This document shows, piece after piece, positions 903-52,758 of a stretch of DNA of 64,000 nt (within the stretch, counting starts at the first letter, position 1; every line of letters begins with the position of its first letter). Location of the stretch: NCBI GenBank assembly GCA_030698625.1, contig JAUYMS010000003.1, positions 83,471 to 147,470 of the forward strand. Direction: 5' to 3'. The translations under genes were made by a program, and so were the position numbers. The notes below the pieces were generated by a model, which was given only the letters and a program-made list of their open reading frames with translations, had not been told where the DNA came from and made no database searches. This DNA is from Candidatus Omnitrophota bacterium (lineage in GTDB: Bacteria; Omnitrophota; Omnitrophia; Omnitrophales; Aquincolibacteriaceae).

Positions 903-1022
903 TTGATGCGGAAAAAGAATTTCAAAAGGGGATTTTGCATCTGGCAAAAACTAACGGCCGCCTTTGTATCGGTCTGCATGATCCTCTTGAGTGTTGTCGA
1001 ATACGTGCCGGCCGCTTATGCC
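903..1022 (+). other. N-terminal Sec-type signal peptide or signal anchor of the giant protein
   Basis: MMRKKNFKRGFCIWQK (basic n-region), LTAAFVSVCMILLSVV (h-region), then PAAYA/ST (AxA-like site), covering aa 1-40. Confidence 0.6.
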
Positions 1023-4000
1023 TCGACCGCCGCCATCTCCGCAGCCCAACCGAACTTATTTTCACTCCAACTGCCCTCAGCCCTCGGAAACGTAGAAGAG
1101 TCGTTTCGCGGACTCAGTACAAAGACAGTCATTCTCATCCAGGACGCACATGATTCTCTCGAAGCCCAAGAACATATTGCGGAACTCGTCGACCACCTGG
1201 TGGCAGAAAAGGGAATAAAAACCGTTTACGAAGAAGGTTATGAGGGAGAGGTCCCAAGCGATGAGCTTTTTGGTTTTATCGAGGACAAGGATCACCGGGA
1301 AAAGGTGTCCTACTTTTTTATGGATCGCCTAAGAATCGGCGGCGCCGAATATGCCCACATCAACCGTAAAAAAGATTTTCGTCTCATCGGTGCCGACAAT
1401 ATTGACCTGCACATCGAAAACGTATCACGGTATCAGGATCTGTCCAAGACAAAGCGGGAGACGGTTGAAGACCTTCGGGCCCTAATCGGGCAGGTGACAT
1501 CTCTGGCGCACAGGTATTTCCCCCAGCCCCTTAAGGAGTGGATGAAACTCAAGGAGCGCTTTGAAGCGGGGAAGTTGGGCCTTACCGACTATCTCAAGCG
1601 GATGATGGCGCTCAGCGACGGAGTCGAGGAATCCGAAAGCATTACGGTCGGGCCTATTATCACGCTTCTTGTGGCCGCCGAAGCCTCGGGCGACGACAAG
1701 CTCCTGGAGCAGATCCGTGATCTCGATCCCAAAGCGGTATACCGTGAAATCGCCGACCTCGAAGACCGGCTGGCCGGCATCTACGTGGAGACGGACCGCG
1801 ATCGTCATATTTTCCGCTTCTACCGGGACCTGACCCTGCTCGGACGCTTGAGCGACATCGCGGTGACTCAGACCGAGTATGGTGCTGTTCAGAAGGCCCT
1901 GGCACGATTTGATACCCAAGGGTTGGCGGAATTTATCACCAAGAATACCGGGAAGTCGGTCGTGCTTTCGCGGCAGTGGGAGCGTAATATCCGCAATGCG
2001 GTGCGCTTCTACGATGTGGCCCATGCCCGGCACAAGGCCCTGCGCCGCCGCCTTGAAGAATTTAAGTCCGATCCCGAAGAGGAGACTGCCGCGCTCGTCT
2101 TCGGAGGTTTCCACACCGAAGATATTCGTGAGATCCTCAAAGAACTGGATATATCCTTCCACGTTGTTTCACCGCGGATCACCGAGATGAGCGAGCGGCA
2201 TCAGAAATATTACAAGCGCTTGATGTCGGCCGGCTATCATGACTTTGAATTAAACGACAAGGTTCGTAGGGCGTCGCGCGCCGTGACTTACTTTGAGCTC
2301 GATGGCAGCGCCGCAATCATCGCGCGTGCTCATGATTATGTGCGGAGTGAATTGCGGGATTTGCCGCGCGAAATTTTGAATACCAATATTGAAAAGCATT
2401 TGGGCGGCGAGGCGGTCTTACAAGCGGGCGTGAAGCCGGAAGCACAGACGGACGCGGATTTGCTTGGTCCGGCGCCGGGCATCGAGAGCGTTGTCGGTTC
2501 TGAGCGCTCCGAACTTAGGCGTCTGGAGTATGGGGGGACAACGCTGTTATTCACCGCAGCGGCCGGAAGTGCGGCCGCAGGTGCGGTCCTCGCATTCCTC
2601 CTGCCGTGGATGGGGCTGAAGGCTTTGGCCGCTGCAATCGGCCTCGGGGCGGCAATCGCCTTTGCGGGCAGCGCCCGCAGCCGTATCGCCCTTGCGTCCA
2701 AAGTTCGGGCAGCCCTCGGGGAAGTCACCGTCATCGGCAAGGGTTCCTACACCAATGTCATGGGACACGAGTCCCTCACCAACAGCCTTAGGCCTGAAAG
2801 CACAAAACTCTCACGCGGTTGGGTAATCCTGCAGAAACGCGGCGCAAAAGCGCTCAAAGACCTTGAGGAATCCGTCAAAGGACCGCAGAACCGCGATGCC
2901 GAGGAAAAGGCTGTCTATCAAGCGCTGTATAAACGGGGATTGGTTCCGAAGACCGTCTATCTTGGGCTCATGCCGATACGCGACATCAAGATCAAACCCA
3001 CCGACAGAAACATGCGCGGCATTTACGACGATGCCGAAGGTCAGTTCCGTAAGGACCGGAAGGACAAGGACAGCCGGCTGCCGGATCACCGCAGCGCCGA
3101 TATTGTTCGCATTGCCATTCAGGAAGAGGGCCTGCCCCTGCATGAATATTTCAAGCTTGTCACCGCGAAAAAAGGCACGGCCATCACAGCGCTCGTAGAG
3201 TTTACCCAAAAGCTTTGGGGTGAGGGGTTCATCGACCTTGACCTGCGCATTGATAACTACATGGTGAAGCTGAAAAATGGAAAGCCCGTCACGGATGCCG
3301 ATGGCAGCCCGGTCATTCTCCTGCATGACTTCGGGGCCGTTTTTAAACTTCCGCGCTCGAGAGAAGGCATCGAGTCCTTTCTGAAAAGCACGATCAATAA
3401 GTCCGACATCTCAGCCGGATTTTTTCTCCTTAGAAATCTGATCCACGTCAACCGCAGCTTTGAGCAAGCCGGCAAAAAAACTATCAAGGTGTACAGCCCC
3501 ATCGCAGACTCCCATGAGAATGCCATTGCGAAGAAGCTTTTCCCCGGCATGAGCCTCAAGGGCATTGCCGAGATGTATGTGCTGGGCCGCAACGAGGCGA
3601 ATCACGTTTCGACGGGCTTAAAGACCTATCTGTTGGAATTCTTTCAGCGCGACGGGCGAGGAGAAGTGATCGAAGGTCATATCGAGGAACTGGCGCGTCG
3701 TATTTTCTTGGCGCTTACAGAAGCAAGCGGCGATCGTGACGACCGCACCCGCTCGGAATTAAGGGCGGCGGATGCGGGGTGGATGGCAGAGCTTGACGAC
3801 GCGTCGGCGCATCAGCTGGCCGTCGACGTGATGCGCCGCCTGGAGCACGTGAGTCCGGAGACGCCTTACGAAGCCAAGTTAGGGGCGGGCAGTGTCTTTA
3901 AAATGGGCGAACAGAATATTGCGGTCGAATACGGCACAGCCAAAACAGGCGGTTGGTTTAGTAAGGACACCGCGGTGATGCGCATTGGCGCGCTGGTTTT

Positions 4001-7000
4001 TGTTCAGCTGCAGCGCGGATCAGCGCGCTCTCTTACGGCACAGCTAAAAAAGCACATGATAAATCTGGGGGATCTCTATCAACAGAACCGAGGCAACATC
4101 ATTTTCATGCCGCCCGCCGACTACTCACGGCCTTCAGCCCAAGACCCCGTGCACATGATTACGCAGATTGCGGTTGCCGCCATGCTGGCAAGCCGTGAGT
4201 CTTTTCCGGGTGCCGTTGTCACGGATCTGGGCGCCGGAGACGGGTTGCTTTCGCAGATTGCCCTGCGGTTGGGGGCCAAGCGGGTCGTCTTAGTCGACAG
4301 GAAGTACGGACAGCTGAGGAAGGCCGAAAAACTCCTTCGAGGCCAGGGCTATGACCAATTTGAATTACTCGAAGCCGATCTGACCGATACCCGCTTTATC
4401 AAACGCATCCTGGAAGAAAATCTCGACCGGGAATCTACGATTGCGCTCGTGAATATCGGACCGCATAAGCGCCTCTACGGCGACGCGAACCGGATCGTTA
4501 TGGAGCGAATCATGCGGTGGACCGGCTTGGGGTTGATTATCAATGCGGGATACTATGGCTCCGGGTGGATCTTCCCGGAAGCCCACGACGAGGAAATTAA
4601 GTATCTCGAAGAATTGCTTCCGCACCATGGCTTTGAAACGACGGTCTATGAAGACGGTATGGGTTGGCGCCGGGCCCTGACCGCGAAGCGCGGCGCGCAA
4701 CGCTCTGAGTTAAGAGCGGAAGAAGGCAAGGCTGAATTTATCGCGCGTATGGAACAGATCTTTGCCGGCGTGAAGCAGTCGGGAAAAAAGCTCGGCACGG
4801 AAGAGTTCGCAGAGCGCATGGGTTATCCGGGGCGCTGGGTCACGGCAAGAAATCGCGCCAAGCGTCTGGGTTATCCGCCCGCGACCTTGCAGCAATACGT
4901 TGAAACCGGGGCCGGAAAGGGCAGGGCCAGGGAAACCAAACAGGAATTCGCGGCGCGCCTGGAAAAGATTTTTGAATCCGTCAGGAAGTCGGAGAAAAGA
5001 GAAAAGATCTCGCGCAAGCTTTTCATGCGCTTAACGGGTTATACGAATAAGTGGGATGCCTTACTGCAGCGCGCGCGCAAGGCCGGCTACGCGTGGGAAG
5101 CCATCAGTCCCTATGTGGAGGCAGACGAGGCCCCGTCAAAGATTGAATTCTTGAAGCGGCTCCGGGCGATTGCCGACGCGGTGAAGCGCCATAAGAGACG
5201 CGACAAGATTTCGCGTGATTTCTTCATGCGCCTCATGGGCTATCCTGAAAATTGGACTGCGCTTATTCAGCGTGCACGCACAAGCGGCGTTACCCTGGCT
5301 GACATTAGTGAATTTGTTGAGAGTGCCGAAGAAACGGGGGTCGATGACAGAGGCCGCATACGCGAAGAGCAGCTTCGCGATGCCGTCACGACGGCCAAAG
5401 AAGAATTCGGTATAACGGGTCAAAGCATGCAAACCCTGAACCGCGCAAGGCGCGCCGAGTATCTGAACCGCGTTGCCGCACTTGTCGGTTACACGAACCG
5501 AAATAACTTCCTTCACCTTACCGAAAAAATGGGCGTGAATCTCGCGGCATTCGACATTCACCGCCTGGAGCGCCTCGTTCCGTATACGCTGACCGAAAGC
5601 CGCCAGTGGTTGATTGACAATCTGCCGAAGCCGGAGGATACGGAGGGCCGAAGGAAGTGGATCAGCACGATCATGCATCTTACCGGTATGGGGATGCTCG
5701 GCAGGACGGCCGCTTATACCTTGCTGCGCGCTGTAAGCTCGGGAGAATCCGGATTCAGTGAACTCGACAAGCCGGTGGCTGAAGAACTCGAACTGGATCT
5801 CTCGACCGTCTCCTCGTCGCTGCTTGGTAAAGAGCCCGTATCCATGGACCGTTCCCCGAATCTCCTAGACTTTTTTGTCACGGCGGCCAATCGCAAACTC
5901 GAGATCGAGCGGCTCAACCCATCGGCCCGCAGCCGTCAGATTACGATGACCCCGCTGCTCGATAATCATCTCTTTCCGTATCACTTGGAGCAGATGCTCA
6001 CAACACAAAGAACGAGCACAAGGGCAGGGGTGCTGGTCGAAGAAGTGATCGGGGAGTTGGGGAGTGAACTGAATGCGGAGGAGCGTACGTTGCTGCGGGC
6101 CGTTGTGCGGGCCCGTGCCGCGGGCACGCGCTTGCGTTATCAGACACATCGAACCGTTACCGCCGCCAATGAAATCTTGTTTGGGACCCGGGAGACTCTT
6201 GGGAGTACCGGCGTGTATCACAAAGTCAAAGCTGCCGTTGAGAACAGCGAAAAGCTCCGCGCAGCATTTGAGGCTTTGCGGGGTGATCTGGATCTTTCCA
6301 CGGACCGTTTTGACCGCGGCTTTTTCGAGTGGCTTCATACCGGGGGGTATCTCCATGACGCCGAGATTCATGGCATTACGCGGCTTATGGTTTACGACAT
6401 CGAAAACGTACCGTCGCCGCATCTCTTGCCGAAACTATCGCCTGAAAACAAACAAGCCTTTGCCGTCGCCTACTTTAGAAACCATCACTTTCAGCAGATT
6501 GCCGAGAATAGCGCCGCAGTCCTCGATGACCCGGGCCTTCCGGTGCATACGCTCTCAGCCGGGTCTCTGCGGGGATGGATTCAGGGGCGCCGGCCCCGAA
6601 AGATTGTGGGCGGCATTCGCAGGCTCGAAGCCGCTCTGAAACCGGGGAGTCCGGTTCAAGAGGTGCGTGAAAGTTCTACGGAACACGAACGTGAAACAGG
6701 ACAAATACTCGCGGGCGGGGGGCACAATAAGGATCTGTTGAGTTTTATTAACGGCCTGCATATGCGAAGGGCGAAGGTTGTCGCATTCTTTAATTTGGCG
6801 ACAAGGATTTCAGAGTCGGTAACGGGTCCGAAGGCCCTTGAGCTGAAGCATGCCTATCAAACTTTGCTTCTTGGGGTACTCAAGAACCCTGAATTGGAAG
6901 TCGACTCAACGCCTGTCCATCTCATGCTCATGAGCACGATTGTTAACCACCGTCACGACGAGGCGTTTTTAAGAAAATTCTTCGAGACCTTACTCGTGGC

Positions 7001-10000
7001 GGCCCATGGCATGAGCGCGCGAGTTTCGAACAGAGAAGCGGCGAACATGTTGGCCCGGACAATTCAGGGTTCGGCTGTCTATCTTGCGGCCGGCCCCAAG
7101 GGACCGATTACGCGCGAGGGTCTGGTTCACGCCTATCAGCGATCGGCGGCGGAGAAAAAACGTTACCTCAAAGTGCAGACGGTGCGGGACGACGCGGAAT
7201 TTCGTCTCATGGGCAGCTTGGCGGTCCCGGTTGGCTTGCGCCCCGATAATGTTTACTTCTCGAAGCTCTACAATGCGGTCATTGCAAAGGTCTATGCCCC
7301 GGTCCGCGTTATCTCTGACGAAGATGCCGCCGGTCACAAGGTCCGGAACAGATCACCCAAGACGTTGCGGCATGTCCGTGAAAGCCAAAAATTTGATCTC
7401 GCAAAAATTCGCAGTGAAGCCGACGAACACCGCCGGCGCCTGCGGCAGGCAGAGCGGCTCGCCTATGACTTTTGGGGCACCCAAGGCGAGCCGGGGTATT
7501 GGCCGGAAGAGAAGGTGAAGGGCTACATATGGACCCACTACCGAAGGTGGGTTCGCGAGGTCGTGTGGGAAAACGGACGCCGCGACATGGGCAGTCACGA
7601 CGGGGTCGATATGGAGGACCTCATGGATCTCGCGCGGGATTCAGTCGCCTATGTGGGTTACACCTACAATGCGCCGGAAGAATTCACGCTCAATCTCGAC
7701 GACCCGGGCTCCCCCGAGGAGCGTCACGCAATGATCACCGGAGTTGAAGCATTGGTGCAGGAAAAGGATGCGACCCTTAAGGAATTCGAACTCATGGTTA
7801 AGGACAAAGACAAAGATGCGACGGAGCTAAAAAGAGCGGGGTTCGGTTTGAAAAAGGCGGAGCGCGCAAAGGCTTATGTGGAATCAGTGCTGACGCTGCA
7901 TCGGCATTATCTGGAAGGGGATGCCGAAAAGGCAGCTAATGTGTATTTCGACCTCGCCGAGCAGCGTGAGACGATCGAGCGGAATATTATGCGAAGTCTG
8001 TTCACGAGTTATCTCAGGCCGAGTATTTTGCATTACAAGTCACGCCGGGCGGTCAAACAGGCGTTTTTTGAATTGAAGGCCATATCTCTGGATCAGCCGC
8101 TTCCCGACGGTGACGGTGAGCTTATGGACATCGCGATCCCCGTTTTGAGATCGCGGGATGAAGAGGCGGTTATCGTTGATGACCCGAGGCTTGCCTCCTT
8201 CCGCAGCATTGCCATTAAACAGCACTTTGCACAAGTGAGGACATCAGCCTTAAGTGATACGGATCGGGATCAATACATCATGCGGCTTTATTACGGACTC
8301 GAGCCGGCGTATGCGGGTGTTGACCTGACGCAGACAGACATCGCGACTATCGTCGCCTTTCATGGCGGGGCCCTCATTACCGATGAGCGAATCCGGCAGA
8401 TTATCGCCAGGCACGACAAGGATATTTTCCGGAGAGTGGTGCACCTGGCCCAGGCGGATAACCTGAAGTCCTGGGACACCTTTATGCTTCAACTCGGAGT
8501 TAAGGAGCCTGATGACGCTCCGCCGCCGGTTGTGATTCCGATCGAAGAGAACGAGTCTAAGATCTGGCTGGGCTCACACATTTGGATTGCCACATTGGGG
8601 GATCATGCGGGCAAATATCTCTCCTTCAAGATCATCGCCTATGACCGTTACAATCCGCGCTCCGCCGATGCAGGCTACAACAACGTCGAACTGCAAAAGA
8701 GAATCTACCCTTATATGCTCGAGATTGTCGTCAGGGATCCGACAAAGCCGGAAAAGGGCAATGAAAATCTGGTCGCCGTTTTTCACGTGCATGTGATTCA
8801 TCGGCCCACCGGATCCGTACAGCAACTACCCATCATCGCGGTTCGCGGAAAGCCGCATTACTTCCTACGCGTTGATAGCGGTGCGCATGACAGTACACTT
8901 GAGCCGGCGGCCGAGAAGGTCGACCGGGATCAGGGCGAGAGGCCGGAGCCTACGGAAGTTCCCGAAGAGCCCGTTCGGGAGGCCGCGATAGAAGAGCCTG
9001 TCGACCGCTTTAAAGATTGGCACGAGTCGGCGATCCCGCATTTGCAAAGACAGCTGAAGAGCGCGCAGGCGACGTCACTGGGGCACCCCGATTTTGAGGA
9101 ACTGGCACCGGTCGGGGAACACGGAAGAATCTGGGTAGCGTATCAGAAAGGGAACGTCGAACGTAAGGCCTTCTTCCATACCGGTATTGCAGGCGAAGGT
9201 CAGGCATGGGTGGGGCGGCGGTATGATCTGAGTAAGTCTCTTTATGTCTATCGAATCGTGCGCGTCAGCGACACCGGCGAGGCCGAATCCACTCGCTACT
9301 ACAGGCTGGATCTTGACGACCATGGCCAGCCCACCGCGATGGGCTTCCGTGAATTTAAGTACGACGGCAGTGTCTGGGAAAAAGTTTCCATTCCCGGCCC
9401 GTTTTGGCTGAAACAGCGGAGTGAATTGAGATCGGCGTCAAACACCGATGATTTTGATCCCCGATTGATCGATACCTACAGCCGCCTATTTGTCGAAGGC
9501 CTCCTCAATACAGTTGAGTCGGAGGGGTATCCGGAACCTTATCAGGGTGCGGTCAAGGAAGCTCGCTCCCGTCTTAATGCCGTCGATATGCCGAGCCTTG
9601 CGGATGTTCTTCAGCCGGTTGAAGCGGCATTGAAAATTCCGGTCACGCTCGACGGTTTAAGCGGTGCGGCAGACGAAACTAAGGTTTACGAACTAGCGAG
9701 ACTCCAATATAAAGTCCGCGCCCTAAACAAGTTTCGCGTACCTATTCGGGAATTTATCAAGAATCTAATGGAGCGGGCGGAATTTGCGGCAAGGATTCAA
9801 TCGTCGACCGAGGGCCCGGTCCGGATGGGACTCATTCATTTTGAAGAGGAAGGACACAAATCGGGTCAATACAGCAACGGATTGGCAGACATTGTGATTG
9901 ACTGGATGAGCACGTGGGACGCCTCGGTCAACGCGATTGTGTTCAGAAACATACGTTTCGATTACTTCTTCAACATCGTCGGGTTGGCAAACGCACTGCA

Positions 10001-13000
10001 ATCCAAGTTTTTCCCGGATGCCCCTGATCCCGACGCCTTAGTTGTTCTCTTGCGGGAATCCTTGAGAAATGCCGTTGTGTGGGGCAACAAGAGCCGGCCG
10101 GACAATTTAGCGGCAATACGCTGGCGGTTCGAGGGAGAAGAGCTTGTCATCGATGTCATTGACCGGAACCGGGAAGAGATTGATTTCACTAAAAAACCGG
10201 AACCCCCGCGGGGCGTCAAGCCGATCTACTATAGCCCGCGTACGGATCCTGCCTCGGGCGGGTATCCGGGGGACATCAAACCCTTTATCGATCCCGCTTT
10301 CCTGACGGGTGATCGCTACGATTTTCCGATTCTCGATAAATCCGGCCGGCGTCTAGGCCAGGTCCTGCACCTGCGTTACCCCTATCCTCAACGATCCGAG
10401 TTACGGGACGAAGACGATGAAGAAGTACTGGGTTATGTGGCCGATCATGCCGACTTCGATACGACGGGATTTATCACGAGCCGGTTTTCCGGAGGTTCTA
10501 ACGTCGTCGGTTTGGGGGATCTCCACACGAATCTGGCGGTCAAGGCGCAGACGATCGATCTGATACGGTCGGGGGAAATTACGCATCTGGTTATGGAGCT
10601 GAACGGTGAGGATCTGAACAAGGCGCTCAAGAATCGGGAATCATTGCGCGAAGCGATTCGGCGTCATTTTGAAATCCTTGTCATTAATGACGAAGACATC
10701 GAGAGTTTCGTCGACGTGATCCTTGCGGCCCAGACAGCCGGCGTTGAGTTGGTCTTCCCTGATCCTCGCAAGACGAGCCGGCCGGACGATCCGGGCCAGG
10801 AGACGGTCGACATGGAAGCGGCCCTGGCAATCGGGTCTATTGTCAGATCTGATCAGGATGCGAAAGTGCTGGTTCTATTCGGAGCCGAGCATACGCGCCG
10901 CGGTCTGCGCTGGCCGCGCAAGGAAGGCCGGAGCCGCCTTACCCTGGGAGAAAATCTCAAAACCGAAGAGGGTGTGCGCTACTATTCGGTCTATCTTGAA
11001 TCGCCGGACCGCAGGGATACCTCGGATTACACCCTGGTGAGAGGCGATAAATACCGCCAGCAGGGATTCGCCCTTACAAATATGGCGTCCTTCCCGCGGC
11101 AGATGCTGGACAGGGCAGCCGATACCGACTTCTTTCGACCTGAGGAAATCGATGCCTACGTTCAACTGCCTCTCCTTAGTTACGAAGACTACCGGACACT
11201 CGTCGCTGCGGGAGAGGATCTACCCAAATTTGTTTTGCCGGAGTTTACCGAAGACTTGGCGGTCAAAAGCAGTGTCGGCGAAAATGAACCGGAGCGCCGC
11301 CGTGCCATCCGTGAAAAAGCGGCTAGGCTGGTGGCCTTGTTGAGAACACAACCGGACGCCGATTGGCCGATCGAAGAAATGGTTGAGGAGTTTAACGGGT
11401 TCCGTCTTGATGTGAGCGAGTACGCGCCGGAGATCGGAGTCATTTATCTCTGGCTCAGCCCGACCGACTCGTTCACGATATCCGTCCCTACTTATTTCGC
11501 CGTCCCCTCACAAGGGATCGTCGTTCACGCCCCGGAATTCAGCGATGACCGCTATGAGGATGAAATCATTCAACTGCCCATCGAGATCGCGAAACTCCTG
11601 AACGGTAATGAGATTGAGAAAGACTCCAGCGGAATCTTTAGCCCGGCGGGGTCTGATATCTACTGGAAGGAATGGAGACAGCGGCATGCCTATCAATACT
11701 ACCGGACCCTCGTGGGCCCCATTGGGGCGGGTGCGGTGCAGGCGATTCTAGCGCGCGAGAGCGGCAGGAAGTGGAGAGTTGTCGACTTCTTCGCCGGAGA
11801 CGGGAGCTTCTTGCGGTATTTAAGTAAACACTTAGCAACGGTGCAGCCGGACACGGATGTTGATTACGCGATGGTGGAGAAGTTCAGCGAACTCATCGAT
11901 CAAGCGCCGCGTACTTTAGCAGGCACGGCGGTCGAAATTCATCAAGCGGATATTCGACACCTGCAGGACGTTAAAGCGATTATCGGTAAGAAGCCGGTCA
12001 TCGTGACAGCCTTCGGCGGGTTGAATTCCGGAGTCGTCAAGCAGGACGACGCCGAGGCCATTGCGAAAAGAATCTACGCAGCCTTGCCGGCCGGCAGTTA
12101 TCTCGTGCTCGGCGGCTACAGCGCGATGATGGTCAATGCGAAGGAGCTCGCTGCAATGGGCTTCGAGGTGCTCAATACGGGACTGCCGCATTACATGGTG
12201 ACCGAAGACAGAGAAGCTCCCAACCAACTTTATATCCTGCGCAAGCCCTATCCGTGGTATCGCGGCGGATTGTGGCGCTCGGAGTTAAGGAGCGCTTTTG
12301 ACTACGATGCCTACAGGAAGCGTCAAGAAGCCGGTCTTGAGGTAATCCTTGAAGAGATCGATGCCCTGCGCACCGACGGCCGCTGGGAAAAGATGCCGCT
12401 TAGTGCGCGGCTCCAACTGATCGGTGAGCGGGCCGACGTGGTTCCCCTCGACTGGGGCGCTTGGCTTGAGCTCCTCGAAAAAACCGGCATGTGGTTCGGG
12501 CCTGAGCGTGAAAAGATGGAGGACCCCACCGATCAGGTCGAGGCTACGATGACGGGTGACTACCAAATACTTCAGGCGCCCAGCATGCGCCAGCCGCAGC
12601 AAGGCGAAACCTACTCGCGCTATCTGACCTCCTATGGCGCTTGTGACTGTCTTGTGTTGACCCTTTATCATCCGGGTACCAAGGTCGGCATGATTGATCA
12701 TCTGTATCTGGAGCGAAAGAAGAATCCCGCCGAGCGCATCGCCGGTGCGCTAAAGACGATGCATGAGGAGTACGGCATCGATCCGCGCGAAGTCAGGGCC
12801 GAGATTTCCGGCGGTCAGATGGACCTATCGAACTTCAAGGCCATTCAGATTCTCGAAGCGCTCGAAACGCATGAAGTGCCGATCTACTTCTTCCAGGCCC
12901 TGGACTTCCCGCTCGTTATGCTGGACGGCTATTATCCGTATGCCGAGGGTGACGGCCATGTCGCCCTGGATTTAGAAACGGGCCGCCATTACCGGCTGCA

Positions 13001-28000: not shown

Positions 28001-31000
28001 TTCGGAATTCGACCTCACGCACGACGACGTTGCTTCGGTTACGCACAGCATCTATGACCGCACGAGCGGTATTATCGGCATACGGGCGGCCGTCGAGGAC
28101 AAAGCGGGAACGGTCCGCTATATCCGGTTTTCGGGCGCAGGCACGAACGAAATGGAGAAATTGAAAACTCTCATGCCACCCATTTCTGAGATGACCGCAG
28201 AGGGGACGGTCCTGCGCGTTTCGGCCGGTAATCAGGGTGACCTGGCCGGGAATTTTACCGTGCACTCACGCAAAGAACGGGGCTGGGAGTTTTTCGGGGC
28301 CAATGACGAGCCTTGGCGGGGAGCGAGATATAAGGCTTTTGTCCAATTGGAAAATGGGAAAAGGATGTTGGGCGAGGTCGAGCTTGTCGGCGAAGCTAAG
28401 GACAACCGCATTAAACAGGTCTTTATCACGCCTGTCGGCGGACGTGAACGAGTCGAGCTCGATGCGATGCAAACGCGGTCGGTCATTGTTGCCTATACGC
28501 TGGGTTGGGGCGAAACGCCGGCGGACGAGTTACTGAGGAAAAATTACGCCATGAGTTCCGATATCCGGCACCTGCTGGCCTTTCCCTTCTTCCGAGGCGG
28601 TCCGCAATTTTACAATCAGACGGTTTTGACCCGCGAGCGCTATAAAGCCGCGATGAACTTCCGGCCGTTGGATTTTGATATTGTCGACATGACCGGTAAC
28701 GCCATTCCCGTCGCAGAGCTTCTCGGCCAACTTGATAAATACGGTTATGTTGCTAAGGATACCGCTGACGAAGTCGTGAAACCGGGCGATTATTTTATTG
28801 CGGACGAAAACAACATTCGTCTTATTTTTCATCCTGCGGTTTATCCCGTCAACATTCTTGTGACGAGTCAGGACGGCGAAAAGGCGGCTTTCGTCAGCAT
28901 CCAGGGTGTTTCCGGAAATCTTGGCGCGAACTATTGGAATGTCTTTGAGTGGATTCAGGAACAGCTGCCCTGGGCCTTTGCCGCCTTTGCCCTCGACAAC
29001 GGCAAGGACCCGTCATGGCAAAGCTACAATGAGGACGGAACCGAAGCGGAGCTGCTTGTTACAGGCCGCGACCTCGTCAATGCGACCGTGCTTGTCACAA
29101 AACGTGACGGTTTTCAACGGTCAGAGTTAAGGCTCCCGGCACGGACCGCTGAGGAAATGATGACGCGCCGGGAATTTATCCCGCGGGCGGCGTTGGCGGT
29201 TGCTGCCGGTCTCGTTGTTCTTTATGAATCGCCCAATATTGTTCTTGCCGCCGACGAAGAGAAGGGAGAAGTGACACTCTTTCTCCTGAGTCACGGCACG
29301 GTTGAGGACTTCGAGACAGTAAAACCGCATGTGGAAGCGGTCATCAAGCGGCTGCTCGATGCGGGTAAGACCGTGCATTATTTTGTTGAAGCCGCCGATC
29401 TCGAAGCGGAATTATCACTGACATCCCTCATTTACGCGGCGCTTGCGCCCGATCAGTCCGCCGACTTGCGCGAGGTCTTTGGCAACCTCTATACGGAGCC
29501 GCTCCCCGAGGCCTTTCTCGAAACCTCTTTTGAGCAAGATCAGCTATTTGTGCCGCTCCTTCAGGGGGTCGAGCGAGGACTTCAATATATGAAGGATCAC
29601 AACGAGATTCCTGCCGACCGTATTGCCGATTACGAGCTGGTCCTCAAGCTTCTGCCTGTCTTGCGGAAGATCAAGGAGAAGTTCCGGGGAATCGTGCGCG
29701 GCACGGCATCGCCGGACTCCGACGACGTCACTCGCGAAGTCGCGATCGAGAGGCTTACGAAACTGTTTGATGAATTTTATGATGCGACCGACCATTCTTA
29801 TGAGCCGGATGGGTTAGCGAAGGCTCCGTTCGCGCATCGATTGCACTATGCCCTTAACCGGGATAAAGACGGAAAGCCCTGGGGATTCTGGGGCGCGCAG
29901 GAGATGTACCTTAGAGAAGGCACGTTTGCCCCGGAACTGGGAACACGACTGCTTGTTCACAGGGAACGCCTGCTTACGCCCGGCCAGCTTGATGCGTATA
30001 CGACAGCGTCGGTGCAATACTCGAAACTATTTGAAGCGCTCGGATTTCCGGGAAATCCCAAATCAGTTATCGAGATCGAAGGAAAATTTCCGGAAGCGGT
30101 TTTCTATGCGACGCAGGGTACCGCGGAGGAGAGATTGGCCCTCGTGCGCAAAGCCTACTACGAGGCCGGCGCCCGATTTGAGAGTGCCGTCATGGGTGGC
30201 CGCGACAGAGCGCTATCGCAAGAGGCGGTCCGTTTAACACCGGAGGACAAAGACGCATCGGTGATTACCCGCGGTTTGGCTCACGTGGCGGCGGGAAGGC
30301 TTCTGGCGGATAATGCCGCGACGGATGTCAGGGACATGAAGCAGATTCAGGGAAGGGCGCAGCCGGCAGTTGACGCGCCCAATACCGAAGCGGAGCTCAG
30401 AGAAATGCGCGGCGGCAATCCGGGCGACGCCATAAAATTAAAGGTTGGGCAGCATATGGTGGTCGGTTTGATCTCCGATCTCGTTCGCGAAGTCCACAAG
30501 GATCATTTGAAGGCGTATCGAGAGCGCTACGAGAACCTCGCGGCCGGAATCCCCGATACCCTTCAAGGTGAGGACCGGGAAAAGGAAATTGAAAAACAGA
30601 TGAATCAGGCCCCTTACTTCCGCGCCATGGATCCTGCACCGCTTCCGAAACGGCTTGAGAGGTTTTTTGTCGAAGACAGACGCAGTATCTGGAACGCAAT
30701 GGCGGACCACCCGGAACAAGTTGAGGAATTCCTGCTTCAGGCCTTTAGGATTCATGCGGCATACCAGCGGGTCGTTGCTGCAACGCTCCGGAAGAAAAAA
30801 GAGACGGAGCCGGAGGAGGATCCTGTGGAAATGGCGGGGAGAATCTATGCGACTTATCTGGCGATGCTGAAGCTGCGGTCTGCCTCGATCCCCACGCCGC
30901 TTGAAGCCGAAGAGCTGCCGTTCAAGTTGATCACAAAGGCCGTTGCCGACGGAGTGTATGAAGGGGATGTGAAGACTTTCCTCGATACCTTCGAAGCAGA

Positions 31001-34000
31001 AGCCGAAAAAGTCATGGATTTCAAACCTTCGCTCCTGCGCCGCGAACGCTATCGCTCCGAGCTGCGGGATGATGAGCCTGTAAAGGAGATTCCTCTTTAT
31101 ATGGCTTATGCGCGGCATTTAAACGCGGCGGACACCTTTGATTTCGCAAAGCCGTTTTTTGATGAGGCAATTCAGAAAACATCTCGCAAAGACGGCCGCC
31201 CGAACGGCATTATGATTATCGAGCATGTGGATTCCAATCTTGCTGCTATGTTCATGAACGCGATGCACCGAGTCGTTGATCCGGTGCAGTTTCCGGACTC
31301 GGTCGTGGGCGCTTGGTTCAGACAACAACTTACTATTCCCAAACAATGGACACCTTATGAAAAGATGGAATCGTTTCTCGTGCAGTACCGGCAAGATCAG
31401 CCGTTCAGGACTGAAGTGGACAACCAGTATCAGGCCTTTCTCAAACATATTGGCGTCGAGAGAATCTATGGCATCTATGACCTAAAGCAAAGGATCGGGC
31501 CGGCCTCTGTTTTACAGCATGCGGAGCTCGACTATTTTATCGAAAAGGGGATAGGTCAGGCCGCGTTGGAGCCCGCCCGCTTTGAAACGGCCGCGACGGC
31601 GTATCTTTTCGGGGAATTGGATAAGGAGATAAGGCAAGCGCTTACGCAAAGGAGATATGACGATGCGGCCAACTTGCATTTAAAGTCGATTGATTTGCTT
31701 GAGGACTCGGGCAAAGTCCGCGACAGGATAATGAATCAATTCGTAGGTGAGCTCATCCGGGAAGATCCTGAGCGTGCCATCTATCACTTTCGCGGTTTTA
31801 ATCATGAGAGAAATCACGATCTCCTTACGGGTGACGGGCAAAAGGCCGCAGGTGTCTTGGTCGGCAGCAGGCTGGGCCAGAGGCCTGTCTTTTCGACAAC
31901 CACCTTTCAAGCCATGGACGGCGCAGAAAAAAACCTTCTCCTCATACATTTTATGAATGAGGTCCTGGATCATTTACTTCATGAAGAGAAACTCAGCTCG
32001 CATCGCAGCATCCAGGAATTCCTGGCTTTTCACCTGAGTCTGACACAGGGGCTTGAGCGGGAATTTAAAAGCCTGGAACAACCTGAAGACTACGATGCTT
32101 GGTTTAGGGAAATCTTTGATGCCGCAAACGAAACAGTACAAAGGAAGAGCCTGTCCCTGGGTCTCGCGCTGCTTGAAGTTTTGGAAGAAAGAAATATCCT
32201 GTCTCGTTCCGAGCTCAGGACCGAAGGCGGCGATAAAGAAAAGCCTCGCGGGCAAATTACGCGAAGGACGTTTTTGGATTGGATGGTGAAAGCCGCCAAT
32301 GCGGCCGCGGCGGCATCGGGGGTTTCGCCCGGGGCATTGCTCGAGGCCGCCGTCTCCATCCCCGCCGAGAAACCAGACTTGTCGCTGGCGGCGTTGGCCC
32401 GGCGATTTGCCCATAATCCCGATTCCCTGAAGGAACTCGAACAGGGTGTTGCTTGGCTTCAGGCATTCACTATCCTATACGGAACTGACAAGAAAGAGGA
32501 AGACTATGAGCTGGGCTTGATAAACCTGAAGCTCGCCGTACTGGACGGCGTGCGCACACGCAAAGAAAGTGAAGGCGTGACCGCGCTTTCCGAAGAGGAA
32601 GCCGCTTCACGGCTTGAGACGGCCCTGAATTCGCTGGAATCCATTGCCCAGTCCGAGGGCCTGAAAAAGGCCCCGCATCTCTTGGAGCGTCTGCGGAGCC
32701 TGATGGCCGAACCGTTCAGCTTCAAAGCTGCGCTGTCTGCACGAACGGCTCTGATACGGCACGCCTGGGGCACCGTACTTGGACCCCGCAGCGAGCTGTC
32801 GAGGGTCGCCAAAGACGTTGCCGAATGGTATGGCCGCGATCTCCGGGCCGCGCAAGCCGTAATGGCGGAGATCGCCGAACAGCTCACGCCGGAAGGATTC
32901 CGAAAAATACGGCAGCGGGAATTGATCTTCGAAAGGAATATGGACAACTACTTTGATCGTTCACTCCTCCCTGAGATTGCGCGCGGCGAGGCCGAGATCG
33001 ATTGGAGCAACCTTTTGGAAGACGACTACCGCGCTCGCATGTCGCGGTTTAAGGATCTGGCCGGTCAGTTGCCGGCAGCGGTGCGCAAGCAGGTGTTTGC
33101 CAATCCTAAAGTGCGGGAGGCTGAACGCAGTTACCGGCAATGGCAGCGCGAAAGCTGGAAACGAAAGGAGGAGCGGGAAACCTCCGCCGATCCCGAATCG
33201 CTCAAGATGATCATCGTCGGCGGCAGGTTCGACGACGAAGGCGGCAGGCCGTCATCATTAGTCAATCAGATTCATGCCGCACTGCCCGCGGGCACGAAGC
33301 GCGTCAACGGCGGCCGCTTTGACGCAATTCCGGGCCTCGCAAAGACCCTCGCCGATTATGACGTGATCATCTGGTTTCCCGATATTCCCAATGACAAGGC
33401 GAAATACCGGAATCTGAAAGCGCGGTATCCCGACAAATTGCTGGTGACCTCGAAGCGCAACCACGAAGGCAGTTATAGCGACCTCGAAGTCGTCGATCAC
33501 GCGCTCAAACTCAAAAGCAATCTCGTCATCGAATTTTCGGATACGATTCCGTTTAATATGAGGCTGCTGGATCCCTTGGGAAATGTCTACGAAGATACTC
33601 AGGACGCGTCATCGCTCGCCAAGTCGATGACAAGGCGCCTCAAGGTGATCGCGAAGGTGCGTCGGCAGGGGACAAAACGCGTCGCGGTCGCCTCACCGGT
33701 CAAGGTACCGGATGAGCCCGAGTTTTTCGATATTATCCGCGATCAAGCCGCGCGATTTCACGAGATCATGAGTGAACGTCGGCCGGAGACGGAAGAAAAC
33801 GAGGAGTTTTGCTTCCGTTGCGAAAGGGGATTCCCGAGTATGCGCGAGGGCGATTTCGCGTTCGTCTCGAAGCGGGGTGCCGCAAACACGGAGCGGCATT
33901 TTACGCGCAAAGATATGGTTCCCGTGGATTTGGCGAGTTTCCGCGAGACGGGCGAAATTAATTTCTACGGCCCCAACAAACCGGCGGTGGATACGCCGGT

Positions 34001-37000
34001 CCAGGTAAGACTCTATAATCAATATCCGGAAGTAAAATATATCATGCATTCGCATGAGTACGTGGAAGGCGCGCCGTTTACCGATGAAGTGTATGCCAGT
34101 GAGGCGCTTCAGGAATTTGACGAGATCGTGAAGGTGGTCGGAAAGGAGCCGGGCGTTAAGAATGTTGCCGTCAATCTGAAAGGGCATGGCAGTGTCGTGC
34201 TTGCCGCCGATCCGGAATATTTGCGCAATACCAAATATGTCTCCCGGACTTTTATCAGCGAGAGGACGGAAATGAACGCTATCCTCGTAGGCGGCCGATT
34301 TGACGGCGAGGGCGGGACGCCGTCGGCACTCATCCAAGAACTTCACGGGGCGTTCCCGCCGGGCGTGACGCTGCACAATGGCGGATCTATCGAAGAGTTG
34401 ACTGCGCTATTCAGCGGGTTGAGCGAGTATGAGGTCATTATGTGGTTCCCCGAGATTCCGCGGGGAGAAGATACCCTTACGTCGAAGATTAAGCTGGTCT
34501 ATCCCTTCAAGAAGCTCATCACGGCGGCCCACAACCGAAGCGGCGACCGCCCGTTCCAGGTGATAATGGACAAGGCGCTCGGCGTGCGGAGCAATTTGGT
34601 TGTCGAATTTTACGACGGCGAGAAGCCGGGCATGCGGCTCTTGGACCCATTATCCAACCAATACGGTGATACTACAGACCCGGCGCTATTTGCCGCTGCC
34701 ATCAGGGAGCGGCTTGAGATCATGAGGAAGTTTACGCGCCAAAGAACGGTTTTGGCGGGTGAAGCCAAAGTGCCGCCGAGGAATGCAGAATTTGAAGAAT
34801 ACCTCGGAATCATCCAGGCGTACGGCGAGAAAGTGCATGAGTTGATTCATCCGGCCGAAGGTGTCAAACGGTTCCTCGGCAATACCTCATTCCGCGCTTC
34901 CTATATGTATCCCGACGCTGGCTACGACGACCTGGTCTACATCTCAAGACGGAACGTCGATAAGCGCAATCTCGATGAAACCGGCTTTATCGCAATCGAG
35001 AAAGACTCGTTTAAAAATAGGCAGATCGGCTACTATGCGGACCGGGATCCCATCACGGGCGAAGAGCAGAAACCGAGCGTAGATACCCCGACCCAGGTGC
35101 GGTTCTTTTCGAAACTGCCGAACGTGAATTTTATCCTGCATTCCCATGTGTATATCGACGGCGCACCGTTTACTGAAGCCCTGTGCCCGTGCGGTTCGCT
35201 CGAAGAAGTCGAAGATGTTCTAAAACTCATCGGTCATGACTACAGCAGGACGAATTTCGCGATCAACCTGCGCGGGCACGGCAGCCTTCTCTTCGCACAA
35301 AGTCTTGATTATCTAAAGGAAGATCACCCGTACACGGCCCGCCCGCTTCCCGAGCTTCTCAATACCGACGGATCCAAGGCGAGAGCCGCTGACTACTTGA
35401 AGAGCCCGTATATTCGCGAAGCCCGTATCGTCGGTGACGGAGAAACCGTTACGGCCGAAATCTTGCCGAACTTCGAAACCCTCGAAGCCTTTGCCCGGGA
35501 GGAAGGGCTCTACACACTGCGTGAAGTCGATCTTCGGAACGATCCCGCAGTTTATCAACTCTTTATGGATATCGCCGGCGGTGTCAACCGGCTGCTCGAT
35601 GAGTCCGAGCATATCCGTAACATTGTCCTTTTAAGTTCTCCGCCGGGCGCGGACAGGCAGCAAATGATCGATACCGCGATAGCCGAAACCGCTCTGGAGG
35701 AGACAACGTCGGCGTACTTCGAGAGCGAAGAATTCGCCCGGGAGATTCTCGCCGTGCCGGGCCGCGAATTGCCGGAAGCCTATGTCAACGTACTGCGCCG
35801 CGATTTTCGTGCCGGCCGGTCGGGGCATTATAAGCGGCTTTTAGGTTTTACGGGTTCCGGCGAAGCCATGTTCGAAAGCATGGAAGAGTATTTCAATAGT
35901 GATGCGGCGGTTAAGATCTATAAAGTTCTGTTTAAAGGGCGCGTGGCGGGCAGAATTGTCGTCAACGAGAGGACTAAGACACTCATTGATGCGATCGTTC
36001 TCGAGCCCTACCGCGGAAACTATCTCGGCGATGCCGTGATCGGGCTGCTCGATCAAAAATACGGCGAATACTCGATCGTGATCCCGACCGGTGTTCCTAT
36101 CTATAATTTTCTCATCAAGCGGGGCTTCAAGGTCCTGCACTCGGAGTCGTTCGGCGCCATTGACCTCGATATCATCAGCCGTACTTCGCATAGCGAAGAG
36201 GATTTGGCGCCGGTAAAGGATGTACACCGTACGATATTCGCGCTTTATGCAAATGCCAAGATGGCTGATTTATCGGCTGCGGCGAAAGACCCGAAAGAGA
36301 GCGGCCTTTACAGGAATTTTCCCGAAGTCTACGATCTGCTCTATCAAAGGTTTTCCAGGCGTTTAGGGGATTACCTGGGCCTTGTTAAGGAGAATACTCC
36401 GGATGGCGGTGCCATCATGGACGCCGCTGCGGGAACGGGCGAGGTATCGGTGCCGCTGCTTCAGGCCGGCTACCGGGTCCTTTCAGCAGACCTTAATGCC
36501 GGAATGCTCGAACAGTTGCAGAAAAAGGCAGGCGAGGGCAGCGTTACGGCAAATACGGCCGTCGCAAGCTTCCATGAATTAGGCGATAGGGAGGACCAAT
36601 TTGATACGGTCAGTGTAAGGCAGGCAATCAATTATCTGGTTGGTGAAAAAGAATTGGTCAGCGGCTTAAAGGCGTTACGCAAGCGGATAAGAAACGGCGG
36701 TAAATTCGTGTTCAACGCGCCGAATTACAATCCCGCGACTTTTACGCCGCCCGAGAGAGGGCCGGATCATATCAAACTGGGAACGATGAATGCGATTGTG
36801 TGGGAGAGCAATGCCATCGATGAAAACGGCATACTAACGCACCATCAGCGCGCTCTCGTGTGGGACGACAACGGCCGTGACGATGTCCGTTACTATCATG
36901 ATAAGAATACGTTTCAGATGTATACGAAGGACGAACTCGACTCCGCTTTGAAAGACGCGGGTTTCTCCGAGATCTCGTATTACTCCGAGCACGGCAAGGC

Positions 37001-38100: not shown

Positions 38101-38655
38101 TTACGGGCGTTTGGGGTCGATCTGGACGGTGTAGTTGGGGTTGGGGTCGAGAAGCTCATTCATGTTGAGCTTCATGCCTTCGCGGCTGTAAGCCGCAAGA
38201 TTCAGGATGTGAGTATCCATCCGAATGGCATCTTCAGGACAGGCCTCCACACAGAATCCGCAAAAGACACATAGCCCAAGATCAATATCAAAACTCTTGG
38301 GGCGCTTCTCGATCGTAGGATCGGGATGCTCTTCTGCCACAATATAAATACACTTTGCCGGACAAACGGTCTCACACATCATACAGGCGACACATCGCGC
38401 CGAACCGTCTTCGCGTTTTGTGAGCCGGTGGCGGGTACGCGAGCGGGGAGCGAGCGGGCGTTTGTGTTCGGGGTACATAATCGTTACGGCGGCCCGAACG
38501 GCTTTGAAAAGCCCGAAGCGGTGCATGGTGTGAAAAAAGAGATTGCGCCAGAAATGGCCCCCGGTAATACACACCCCGCGGATGATTTCCGGGATGTAGA
38601 TCTGCTGCCAGAATGTCATCTTCGGGCGTTTAATGATTTTTGTCGTAATAGCCAT
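38101..38655 (-). CDS. nuoI: NADH-quinone oxidoreductase subunit I (2x[4Fe-4S])
   Basis: Two ferredoxin motifs, CVACMMCETVCP and CVFCGFCVEACP. The N-terminal IIRGVCITGGHFWRNLF is typical of NuoI. Confidence 0.9.
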   Translation of the reverse strand: MAITTKIIKRPKMTFWQQIYIPEIIRGVCITGGHFWRNLFFHTMHRFGLFKAVRAAVTIMYPEHKRPLAPRSRTRHRLTKREDGSARCVACMMCETVCPAKCIYIVAEEHPDPTIEKRPKSFDIDLGLCVFCGFCVEACPEDAIRMDTHILNLAAYSREGMKLNMNELLDPNPNYTVQIDPKRP

Positions 38656-50928: not shown

Positions 50929-50957
50929 ATTATCCAAAAACATGCAAGAGATGTCAA
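50929..50957 (-). promoter_or_regulatory. Sigma-70-type promoter of the atp(-nuo) operon: TTGACA-17 nt-GATAAT
   Basis: On the minus strand, -35 TTGACA corresponds to plus 50952-50957 and -10 GATAAT to plus 50929-50934, with a 17-nt spacer. The -10 lies about 45 nt upstream of the atpZ-like start. Confidence 0.55.
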
Positions 50958-51880: not shown

Positions 51881-51882
51881 CC

Positions 51883-52701: not shown

Positions 52702-52743
52702 CGAGCTTGGAAGGCTCGGACTTTACCATTAAGCTATGCCCGC
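52673..52743 (-). tRNA. tRNA-Gly (anticodon UCC)
   Basis: Folded by hand from the minus strand: GCGGGCA-TA-GCTT-AATGGTA-AAGT-C-CGAGC-CTTCCAA-GCTCG-TTAT-GAGGG-TTCGATT-CCCTC-TGCCCGC-T. It has a 7-bp acceptor stem and a TTCGATT T-loop. CCA is not encoded. Confidence 0.9.
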
Positions 52744-52758
52744 ATGGCGGTCCGTGTT

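Follow-up and report, generated by a model that had tools for sequence, protein, structure and literature searches.

Does a very long open reading frame (ORF) of an uncultivated bacterium encode one enormous chain, or a string of ordinary proteins that are later cut apart? This question is raised by a 64,000-nucleotide stretch of a Candidatus Omnitrophota genome (assembly GCA_030698625.1, contig JAUYMS010000003.1, positions 83,471 to 147,470), here called the window, in which one ORF on the + strand (903..37655; 12,250 codons plus stop), here called the giant, encodes many unrelated enzymatic modules. Giant Omnitrophota ORFs are a recognised puzzle in exactly this respect (10.1101/2023.11.21.568195). 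ORFs of more than 20 kb occur in most Omnitrophota classes (Seymour et al. 2023; PMC10066038). West-Roberts et al. (2023) separated 'large' proteins of more than 10 thousand amino acids (kaa) from 'giant' proteins of more than 30 kaa and described a methyltransferase/GNAT/peptidase/NUDIX-rich 'Archaeovorin' type; they suspected that giants are cleaved, and the cleavage points were unknown, which blocked structural and functional analysis (10.1101/2023.11.21.568195). Nielsen & Lui (2026) counted 5,761 proteins of at least 10 kaa and recognised a 'multi-enzyme metabolic cluster' class (10.64898/2026.06.07.730766); such proteins are common in Omnitrophota, and the original prediction, made from the letters of the window, had overstated their rarity. 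A giant multi-enzyme ORF as such is already known in the phylum, and this one is modest in size, since its 12,250 amino acids (aa) pass the 'large' threshold and fall short of the 30,000-aa 'giant' one. In this study, we believe that a pentapeptide, R-[S/A/T]-E-Φ-R, very probably marks the boundaries of functional units in this protein and its relatives. On balance we lean towards proteolytic cleavage at this motif, so that the gene would encode a polyprotein, and we propose only tentatively, as the weakest step, that the N-terminal domain (the head) is the processing enzyme.

The pentapeptide RSELR occurs 16 times in the giant, whereas 0.04 occurrences were expected and the maximum in 2,000 shuffles was 1; any other pentamer occurs there three times or fewer. 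No RSELR was found in the other frames and genes of the window. The codons of RSELR differ synonymously from site to site, which places the selection at the peptide level instead of the DNA level. A DNA-level repeat or recombination site was considered as the origin of RSELR and was excluded by the synonymous codons and the absence of nucleotide repeats.

Site 1 lies at 2343..2357 (aa 481-485) and site 2 at 2505..2519 (aa 535-539), the latter at the end of the head region and immediately before a hydrophobic pair (2529..2675, aa 543-591). This pair starts 3 aa past site 2, at the N-terminus of segment 3, and is predicted to be a membrane anchor or hairpin that is not conserved in the family. 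Site 3 (3750..3764, aa 950) is a border shared with the paralogue L022, and site 4 (4701..4715, aa 1267) is aligned with a motif in L080. Sites 5 to 9 follow at 9417..9431 (aa 2839), 10392..10406 (aa 3164), 12276..12290 (aa 3792), 13035..13049 (aa 4045) and 18795..18809 (aa 5965). Homology with P0042 stops at site 10 (21273..21287, aa 6791), and site 11 (23463..23477, aa 7521) is aligned with a motif in L047. Sites 12 and 13 are at 27786..27800 (aa 8962) and 29118..29132 (aa 9406); homology with P0059 begins 4 aa after site 14 (31053..31067, aa 10051); site 15 is at 32205..32219 (aa 10435), and site 16 (37050..37064, aa 12050) stands immediately before the conserved C-terminal domain (the tail). 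All of these features, and those described below within the giant, are on the + strand. The 16 sites set 17 segments with lengths of 485, 54, 415, 317, 1572, 325, 628, 253 and 1920 aa (segments 1-9) and 826, 730, 1441, 444, 645, 384, 1615 and 196 aa (segments 10-17).

The motif is a property of a family and not only of the giant. When the first 1,199 aa of the giant were used as the query of a family search, 55 proteins were returned, all of which match aa ~7-540 only, each with its own N-terminus. The cargo behind the head in these relatives includes APH, HEAT, M23, methyltransferases, sigma-70, amylase, CAAX, NUDIX, glycosyltransferase, transglutaminase, SecA-DEAD and WD40. A scan of one genome per species found at least 291 head-encoding loci, and the family statistics given here rest on 80 of them, from 51 metagenome-assembled genomes (MAGs). 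The named records among the 80 loci are all Omnitrophota except one Planctomycetales-labelled MAG, and many are labelled just 'uncultured bacterium'. The head always opens its ORF, which is 528 to >3,900 aa long, and a MAG may carry up to at least 5 copies. Same-strand tandem pairs of head genes were seen in some MAGs, for example, at L013 (17931-21740), L047 (3086-6862) and L020 (11341-18490); at L020 the family ORF is split into overlapping frames by a frameshift or assembly error.

Across the 80 ORFs that carry the head (225 kaa), no pentamers, the head's own motifs included, are commoner than RSEVR, RSELR and RSEMR, and two or more motifs are present in 70 of the 72 ORFs of at least 1,000 aa. 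At 1.95 per kaa versus 0.032 expected from composition, the motif is ~60-fold enriched. In the motif logo, R (100%), S or A (81% and 19%), E (100%), one of L/V/M/A/I and R (100%) are followed by a small residue (S/T/A/G), and the flanks are uninformative. Near variants are scarce (KSE.R 9, RSD.R 3 and RSE.K 8, versus 386 for RSE.R). Hydrophobic residues are depleted and disorder-promoting residues enriched in the flanks, and L/F/W/Y/R/K make up 16% of the residues after the motif versus 33% of the background. Outside the family ORFs, the motif is scarce and occurs mostly in second head-bearing ORFs, in frameshift continuations and in C-terminal pieces of neighbouring long ORFs, including a few fragments with N-termini beyond the ends of the locus; a few other background occurrences are single matches in short ORFs. 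The first copy lies at a median of 105 aa past the head's GGFH motif, and a copy usually stands 2-40 aa before the tail. The median distance between motifs is 296 aa, as long as an ordinary protein.

The fourth position varies by genome. Within a protein, the fraction of sites with the same residue at position 4 is 0.40 versus 0.19±0.01 in shuffles, and the variant is shared by the paralogues of one genome. For example, all 16 sites of the giant have L, as do all those of the three CAYSSX01 paralogues, CAYGIT01 uses A, and several MAGs use R-A-E-x-R. JACKFM01 is almost devoid of RSExR and uses RTEMR (RTE.R ten times). Such genome-specific variants are the pattern expected of sites that co-evolve with a recognition factor. 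In the JACKFM01 members L036, L075 and the ORF upstream of L075, RTEMR is repeated, often as SLDRTEMR; the paralogue upstream of L075 has a divergent head, IIQDAHAIPDAQ.

In segments 3, 4 and 11, and likewise in the tail, a block of homology to a paralogue starts or stops where both proteins carry the motif, and the cargo next to it differs. An exhaustive search of aa 9411-10600 (1,190 aa) against 1.84 billion protein representatives found 4 relatives in all, whose matches begin 4-9 aa past sites 13 and 14. Segment 14 starts with an internal signal of the twin-arginine translocation (Tat) type (29133..29258; TRREFIPRAALAVAAGLVVL...VLA|AD, 15 aa past site 13), and segment 16 has a second, Tat-like one with a weaker hydrophobic region (32220..32342; ITRRTFLDWMVKAANAAAAASG, 18 aa past site 15). 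These are the only two twin-arginine consensus motifs of the giant. Both combine the Tat consensus with a hydrophobic region (TRREFI... and TRRTFL...), and they would be N-terminal only if the upstream sites were cleaved. The same arrangement was found in relatives: in P0057 (4,466 aa, head-bearing, 20 motifs) RSEVR, 12 aa and a Tat signal lead into the segment-14 homologue, P0056 has motif and then Tat at its segment-14 homologue as in the giant, and in P0059 an RSEVR motif and a Tat/lipobox signal stand ahead of the segment-15 homologue. A complete gene of 682 aa, P0058, stands free and is homologous to segment 14 from the Tat region onward; it is the one case of this kind that was found. 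The free-standing 682-aa homologue of segment 14 at L083 (Logan ERR10503139, 257-2305) carries a hydrophobic segment at its N-terminus, and its twin-arginine motif lies at residue ~70.

Five of the six convincing internal Tat signals of the family stand directly past a motif. Hydrophobic segments in general follow the same rule: 30 of 90 first-of-cluster segments start within 40 aa past a motif versus 7.8% expected (P=3e-12), and no more than 7 of 148 have their end in the 40 aa ahead of one. Signal peptides of textbook appearance are numerous among the post-motif segments, for example, RSEMR-GFNSSLRKSILYVLAAGGLLISSTVGFA|AD.

The head begins with a signal peptide or anchor of the general secretory (Sec) type (906..1022, aa 2-40), which comprises MRKKNFKRGF, a 16-aa hydrophobic core and AYA|S. 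It coincides with a hydropathy peak and with helix 7-30 of the structure model and is kept in the family consensus, which makes the Sec-type signal or anchor claimed by the original prediction plausible. It is followed by a TIKI/TraB/erythromycin-esterase-like hydrolase domain (1050..2237, aa ~50-445). In ORF codons, its invariant residues are D81, H83, E111, R376 and H404; these are D80, H82, E110, R375 and H403 in alignment A1, in which they are invariant across 48 head sequences. The structure model has a predicted local distance difference test (pLDDT) score above 90, and its fold matches are Bcr135, EreC, TraB, RRSP, ChaN and HopBA1. The five residues of the head stand in the same order and at nearly the same spacing as E3900/H3902/E3930/R4001/H4030 of RRSP, and the catalytic residue order with near-equal spacing is also shared with Bcr135. 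Like other members of the TIKI superfamily, the head is predicted to have an α/β core with catalytic-type residues at the C-terminal ends of parallel strands; it differs by an Asp in place of the first Glu and by a ~260-aa helical insertion that separates its two halves. By sequence alone the head was not recognised: it matched none of the Pfam families TraB, Erythro_esteras and ChaN even at an expect value (E) of up to 10, and its profile found nothing among PDB sequences. From the aligned residues, the head appears to retain the complete TIKI catalytic set, with Asp for the first Glu. Within the superfamily, RRSP is a sequence-specific endopeptidase and Tiki cuts Wnt proteins; the head may instead be an esterase.

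The tail is a Rossmann-like domain of ~190 aa (37065..37652, aa 12055-12250) that most complete family members share and that ends in ...SIAA-COOH in the giant. Several complete relatives match the last ~200 aa of the giant with their own C-termini. A local profile located the tail in ~35 complete family members, 10-80 aa from their C-terminal ends, and detected none in the remaining ORFs of the loci. A word-indexed search with the tail alone gave no matches, and the family was recovered by the local profile only. In alignment A2, the C-terminus of all 18 tails reads x-[A/S]-A-COOH, the last Ala being invariant; the last two codons of the giant are 37647-37652. The terminal AA resembles ssrA-type C-terminal degrons or Tsp/Prc recognition, and, by this resemblance, it could mark the tail or an unprocessed precursor for degradation or recognition. 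The model of the tail has a pLDDT of 79, and the fold search returned generic Rossmann/HAD-like α/β folds only. Positions ~54-103 of the hidden Markov model (HMM) of the tail have weak secondary matches at head aa ~300-390, in L002, P0018, P0049, P0007, P0029, P0011, L010, P0015 and L055; these weak matches hint that the tail may be distantly related to part of the head.

The conserved head and tail, the 16-fold RSELR and the internal Tat-type signals all escaped the original prediction. Because of them, we suggest that what looks like 'unrelated modules in one protein' is in fact a series of distinct proteins made as a single precursor. This precursor would consist of the Sec-type signal or anchor, the TIKI-like head, a variable string of unrelated cargo and the Rossmann-like tail, with the motif between all units. 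The product of ~1.35 MDa would be cut at or beside the motifs into ~17 pieces of 54 to 1,920 aa. The new N-termini made by cleavage would uncover a Sec, Tat, lipoprotein or anchor signal on part of the products and leave the rest soluble. The head would be exported via Sec, segment 3 would enter the membrane, segments 14 and 16 would travel via Tat, and the enzymes that depend on ATP, S-adenosylmethionine (SAM) or acetyl-CoA would remain where their cofactors are. The cutting itself may be performed by the head, which is the leading candidate because it has the full TIKI set, because endopeptidases with site specificity occur among the TIKI members, because head and motif co-occur nearly exclusively, and because no neighbour gene is conserved.

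The family, the motif, its enrichment, its selection as a peptide, its genome-specific variants, its match with cassette borders and its link to downstream signal peptides are observed, and cleavage, its place, its timing and its enzyme are all things that we infer. Several observations weigh against this polyprotein model. The predicted topology is in conflict with itself: the Sec-type signal puts the head in the periplasm, whereas the Tat signals and the cofactor-dependent cargo imply cleavage on the cytoplasmic side, so that perhaps the head is not the protease, or else the predicted topology is wrong. A motif for linking or docking might likewise be found at module borders. Some sites are double, with 20% of the inter-motif distances below 60 aa. 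Two proteins, L029 (the same as P0022; 1,591 aa, WD40 cargo) and L040 (3,467 aa), have head and tail and no recognisable motif; the head of L029/P0022 keeps the invariant residues, and L040 is outside that alignment. Finally, a loose twin-arginine pattern is not enriched past the motif (2/19, p=0.3); the association of Tat signals with the motif emerged only once the pattern had to include a hydrophobic region and variants of the motif were counted too.

The same observations can be read as a single uncleaved, membrane-tethered multi-enzyme scaffold, in which the motif is a linker or docking site and the hydrophobic segments are ordinary transmembrane passes. Published topology surveys describe long membrane-anchored chains, current Omnitrophota papers mostly assume an intact chain, and peptides of the V. 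archaeovorus giant protein have been detected. The flanks of the motif are also linker-like. However, an invariant code of five residues whose variants are genome-specific is more than a linker requires, and docking leaves the small-residue preference after the motif unexplained. The placement of the hydrophobic segments is a further difficulty: signal-like segments lie downstream of the motif and not upstream (30/90 versus 7/148), and both Tat-type signals of the giant are oriented with the positive charges towards the N-terminus and have no stop-transfer segment between them, which does not fit a single continuous topology. An uncleaved chain is hard to reconcile with the observations because of this orientation of the Tat-type signals and the downstream-only placement, and we consider it unlikely.

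The cargo between head and tail was annotated by tiled Pfam scans and PDB sequence searches across the giant, and it agrees only in part with the motifs that the original prediction had listed. Its UbiB motifs proved to be an ABC1/UbiB atypical kinase-like domain in segment 9 (17091..17900, aa 5397-5666; Pfam E 1.7e-25, PDB 5yjz 6e-11); the kinase motifs inside this domain stand with it, and the other kinase motifs found no support. The HExxH motif belongs to an M48-type metallopeptidase motif region that is above the Pfam cut-off, also in segment 9 (13140..13367, aa 4080-4155), and GNAT motif A belongs to an acetyltransferase domain in segment 10 (19860..20180, aa 6320-6426). The HSH/GHG aldolase-like motifs correspond to two class-II-aldolase-like units centred at ~aa 11000 and ~11320; they form a duplicated unit (33201..35318, aa 10767-11108 and 11124-11472), each half with a class-II-aldolase-like region and a CxxC or CxC pair. 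Three methyltransferases had been predicted, and one is a clear SAM-dependent domain at the end of segment 16 (36309..36968, aa 11803-12022; E 4e-11); the motif at aa 1106-1165 lies in a weak region of segment 4 that is below the Pfam cut-off (4215..4412, aa ~1105-1170), and the third is unsupported. The predicted Walker A has only a weak counterpart below the cut-off, a P-loop/AAA-like region in segment 12 (25509..25940, aa 8203-8346). The proposed regulatory modules did not hold up, because the Sigma70_r4, HATPase and SinI matches (E ~1e-2 to 1e-3) are all below the cut-off. For more than 85% of the protein, neither Pfam nor the PDB sequences gave a match, and these scans found no immunoglobulin (Ig), cadherin, RTX or YD repeats and no nonribosomal peptide synthetase (NRPS) or polyketide synthase (PKS) domains, in line with what had been predicted.

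The start of segment 7 (~10500-10892, aa ~3200-3330) has the series GLGDLHT...VMELNG...VLFGAEH, which resembles IQDAH/EEGYEG/FGGFH of the head with a far shorter insert. Going by these short motifs, the cargo may contain here a second TIKI/ChaN-like domain, of compact form. The head HMM found no extra head copies within the cargo, and the GLGDLHT region of segment 7 was not detected either.

Compared with the 'Archaeovorin' and multi-enzyme proteins of Omnitrophota, the giant is alike in phylum, in its length above 10,000 aa, in its N-terminal signal or anchor and in its mosaic of methyltransferase, GNAT, peptidase, kinase and aldolase types within largely unannotatable sequence; it also shares the lack of nucleotide tandem repeats or a dominant repeat family and the near-singleton sequence. 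In contrast, the Omnitrophota giants reach 30-147 kaa, so that this protein is much shorter, and the Omnitrophota proteins of at least 10 kaa have a mean of 22 hydrophobic segments, whereas this one has ~4-5. The SecA-DEAD, C39, S8, HEAT, glycosyltransferase and dockerin content of the giants was not detected in this protein, and housekeeping genes surround it where the published giants have genes for type II secretion, pili or glycoside hydrolases. Neither of the two Omnitrophota giant-protein papers (West-Roberts et al.; Nielsen & Lui) describes the conserved TIKI-like head, the conserved tail or the boundary motif, and no paper was found that links Omnitrophota with a polyprotein or with TIKI, TraB or erythromycin esterase. 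The family architecture and its boundary motif thus appear to be undescribed so far.

The lineage and the surroundings of the giant are those foreseen by the original prediction. The polynucleotide phosphorylase (PNPase) of the window has a 100% identical counterpart, MDP3919306.1, in a Candidatus Omnitrophota MAG; the next PNPase relatives are 60-68% identical and are Omnitrophota wherever named, except for one record labelled Verrucomicrobiae. Together with the named head relatives, which are Omnitrophota with the one exception given above, this bears out an Omnitrophota-type lineage. An SseB-like gene (161-703, + strand) lies 200 nt upstream of the giant gene and a convergent nuoI-like gene (38101-38655) downstream, both as predicted. 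The downstream order is nuoI/N/M/L, the F1Fo ATP synthase operon, an M28 peptidase, nusA, infB, an nrnA-like gene, truB, ribF, pnp and dut. The M28 peptidase, a DUF748-like ORF and a fatty-acid desaturase (50954-53604), which separate the ATP synthase operon from the nusA-infB-truB-ribF-pnp-dut cluster, are ordinary chromosomal context. The SseB-like gene was considered as a conserved chaperone partner and was ruled out, since it is absent from all 80 related loci. No neighbour gene is conserved across these 80 loci, in which the top clusters are antisense shadow ORFs of the head. The best real neighbour is an ABC-F type ATPase upstream of the head gene in 10 of 80 loci (e.g. L074, 3906-5843), and a FabI-like reductase is found upstream in 7 of 80; both probably reflect local synteny among related MAGs with no functional link. 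No secretion gene was found in the window or in the 80 loci, and the claim that no secretion or chaperone gene flanks the giant is borne out.

This neighbourhood bears on a second alternative, in which the giant is a MARTX-like polyprotein for the delivery of multiple effectors; it would be exported whole, its cargo would be freed in a host or prey cell by the head or a host factor, and its ends would serve export or translocation. Conserved ends with shuffled, hypervariable, unrelated enzymatic cargo are indeed found in MARTX and polymorphic toxins, cytoplasm-type enzymes stand behind a secretion signal here, and Omnitrophota are thought to be host-dependent or predatory. MARTX effectors are freed by an embedded protease that cuts the linkers between modules, and the head has the fold of the MARTX effector RRSP and of the type III effector HopBA1. 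However, MARTX toxins carry RTX or A/B/C repeats, a cysteine protease domain (CPD) and type I secretion genes; the Pfam scans of the giant found no such repeats and no CPD-like protease, and secretion genes were found neither in the window nor in the 80 loci. MARTX linkers are cut at a Leu-X site, whereas the motif here is a strict pentapeptide. There is no linked secretion system, immunity gene or toxin domain; the family is chromosomal, is multi-copy (up to at least five per MAG, as above) and sits in a housekeeping context, and no sign of toxicity or delivery was seen. The cargo of relatives includes sigma-factor, glycolytic-type and WD40 domains, which resemble housekeeping functions, and the internal Tat and lipoprotein signals point to sorting within the producer cell. 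We regard delivery into another cell as improbable.

A third alternative dispenses with proteolysis: the separate products would come from translation that starts at internal sites, or from transcripts that start within the gene, and the motif would mark the ends of the upstream units. In segment 14 there is a Met-Met right before the Tat motif (MMTRREF), which is a possible start. However, most post-motif signals of the family have no suitably placed Met, Val or Leu start, e.g. RSEIR-SASRREFL, RSEVR-DETTRREWL and the ITRRTFL of the giant, there is not one stop codon within the 36.7 kb, and the conserved peptide motif is left unexplained, so that we give this explanation very little credence.

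The reality of the ORF itself was also evaluated. Its position and its length of 12,250 aa are exactly as originally predicted. The frame is bounded by an upstream in-frame stop at 879; TTG 903 immediately precedes ATG 906, and AGGA lies ~9 nt 5' of this ATG. ATG 906 is likely to be the start because of this AGGA and because the alignments with homologues begin at residue 1-2. The G+C content at the three codon positions (GC1/GC2/GC3) is ~0.62/0.40/0.65, even across all twelve 3-kb bins of the ORF, and therefore the whole frame is coding. Tandem Repeats Finder found no tandem arrays, there are no direct repeats of at least 40 nt, and the sole duplication at the protein level is aa 10767-11108 versus 11124-11472. 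These results confirm that the gene is real and coding throughout; the earlier claims that this is not a chance ORF and that it is not built from nucleotide repeats stand. An exact 30-mer from the gene was not matched in metagenome scans, which also gave no orthologues of segments 6-8; Logan assemblies of SRR13727534 contain pieces of the same genome. An assembly artefact, such as a chimeric join or a collapsed frameshift, would suit a short-read-type MAG contig for which no independent assembly was found, but the coding statistics are uniform, a family-typical head and a family-typical tail (-AA) stand at the exact N- and C-terminus, L is the variant at each of the 16 sites from one end to the other while other genomes use other variants, and relatives of 3-4.5 kaa and longer show the same grammar, so that we consider it the least credible explanation of all.

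The giant is poor in cysteine, with 10 in 12,250 residues (0.1%), at aa 12, 25, 3914/3916, 5854/5855, 10970/10973 and 11428/11430. Those outside the signal peptide are all paired (CxC, CC or CxxC), and two pairs lie in the duplicated aldolase-like units.

Bacterial polyprotein precursors exist, for example, the gingipains RgpA and Kgp of Porphyromonas. The giant resembles viral and gingipain polyproteins in that one ORF encodes many units, the short linear motif has unconserved flanks and a small residue after it, the protease is perhaps part of the precursor, and the motif variant co-varies with the genome. It differs in being a cellular gene of 36.7 kb with 16 sites, whose pieces have their own Sec, Tat or lipoprotein signals and whose cleavage is a proposal. 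Extending the polyprotein model beyond this gene, we speculate, with clear reservation, that R-[S/A/T]-E-Φ-R may be the missing cleavage code of a large class of long and giant Omnitrophota proteins, which would be cut into enzymes of ordinary size by their own N-terminal TIKI-type protease and whose products would be sorted individually, each by its Sec, Tat, lipoprotein or anchor signal.

The boundary motif and a candidate protease domain make the question 'one chain or many proteins?' experimentally addressable, and the motif provides an immediate computational rule for splitting such proteins before structure prediction and annotation. Should cleavage not be confirmed, the giant would simply join the known large Omnitrophota ORFs, set apart by a conserved linker motif of an unusual kind. 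If the cleavage is true, dozens of normal proteins would be encoded as a few polyproteins, and gene counts, regulation and sorting in these reduced genomes would have to be reinterpreted. Such 'operons in a single ORF' would be a form of cellular gene organisation that is otherwise known mainly from viruses.

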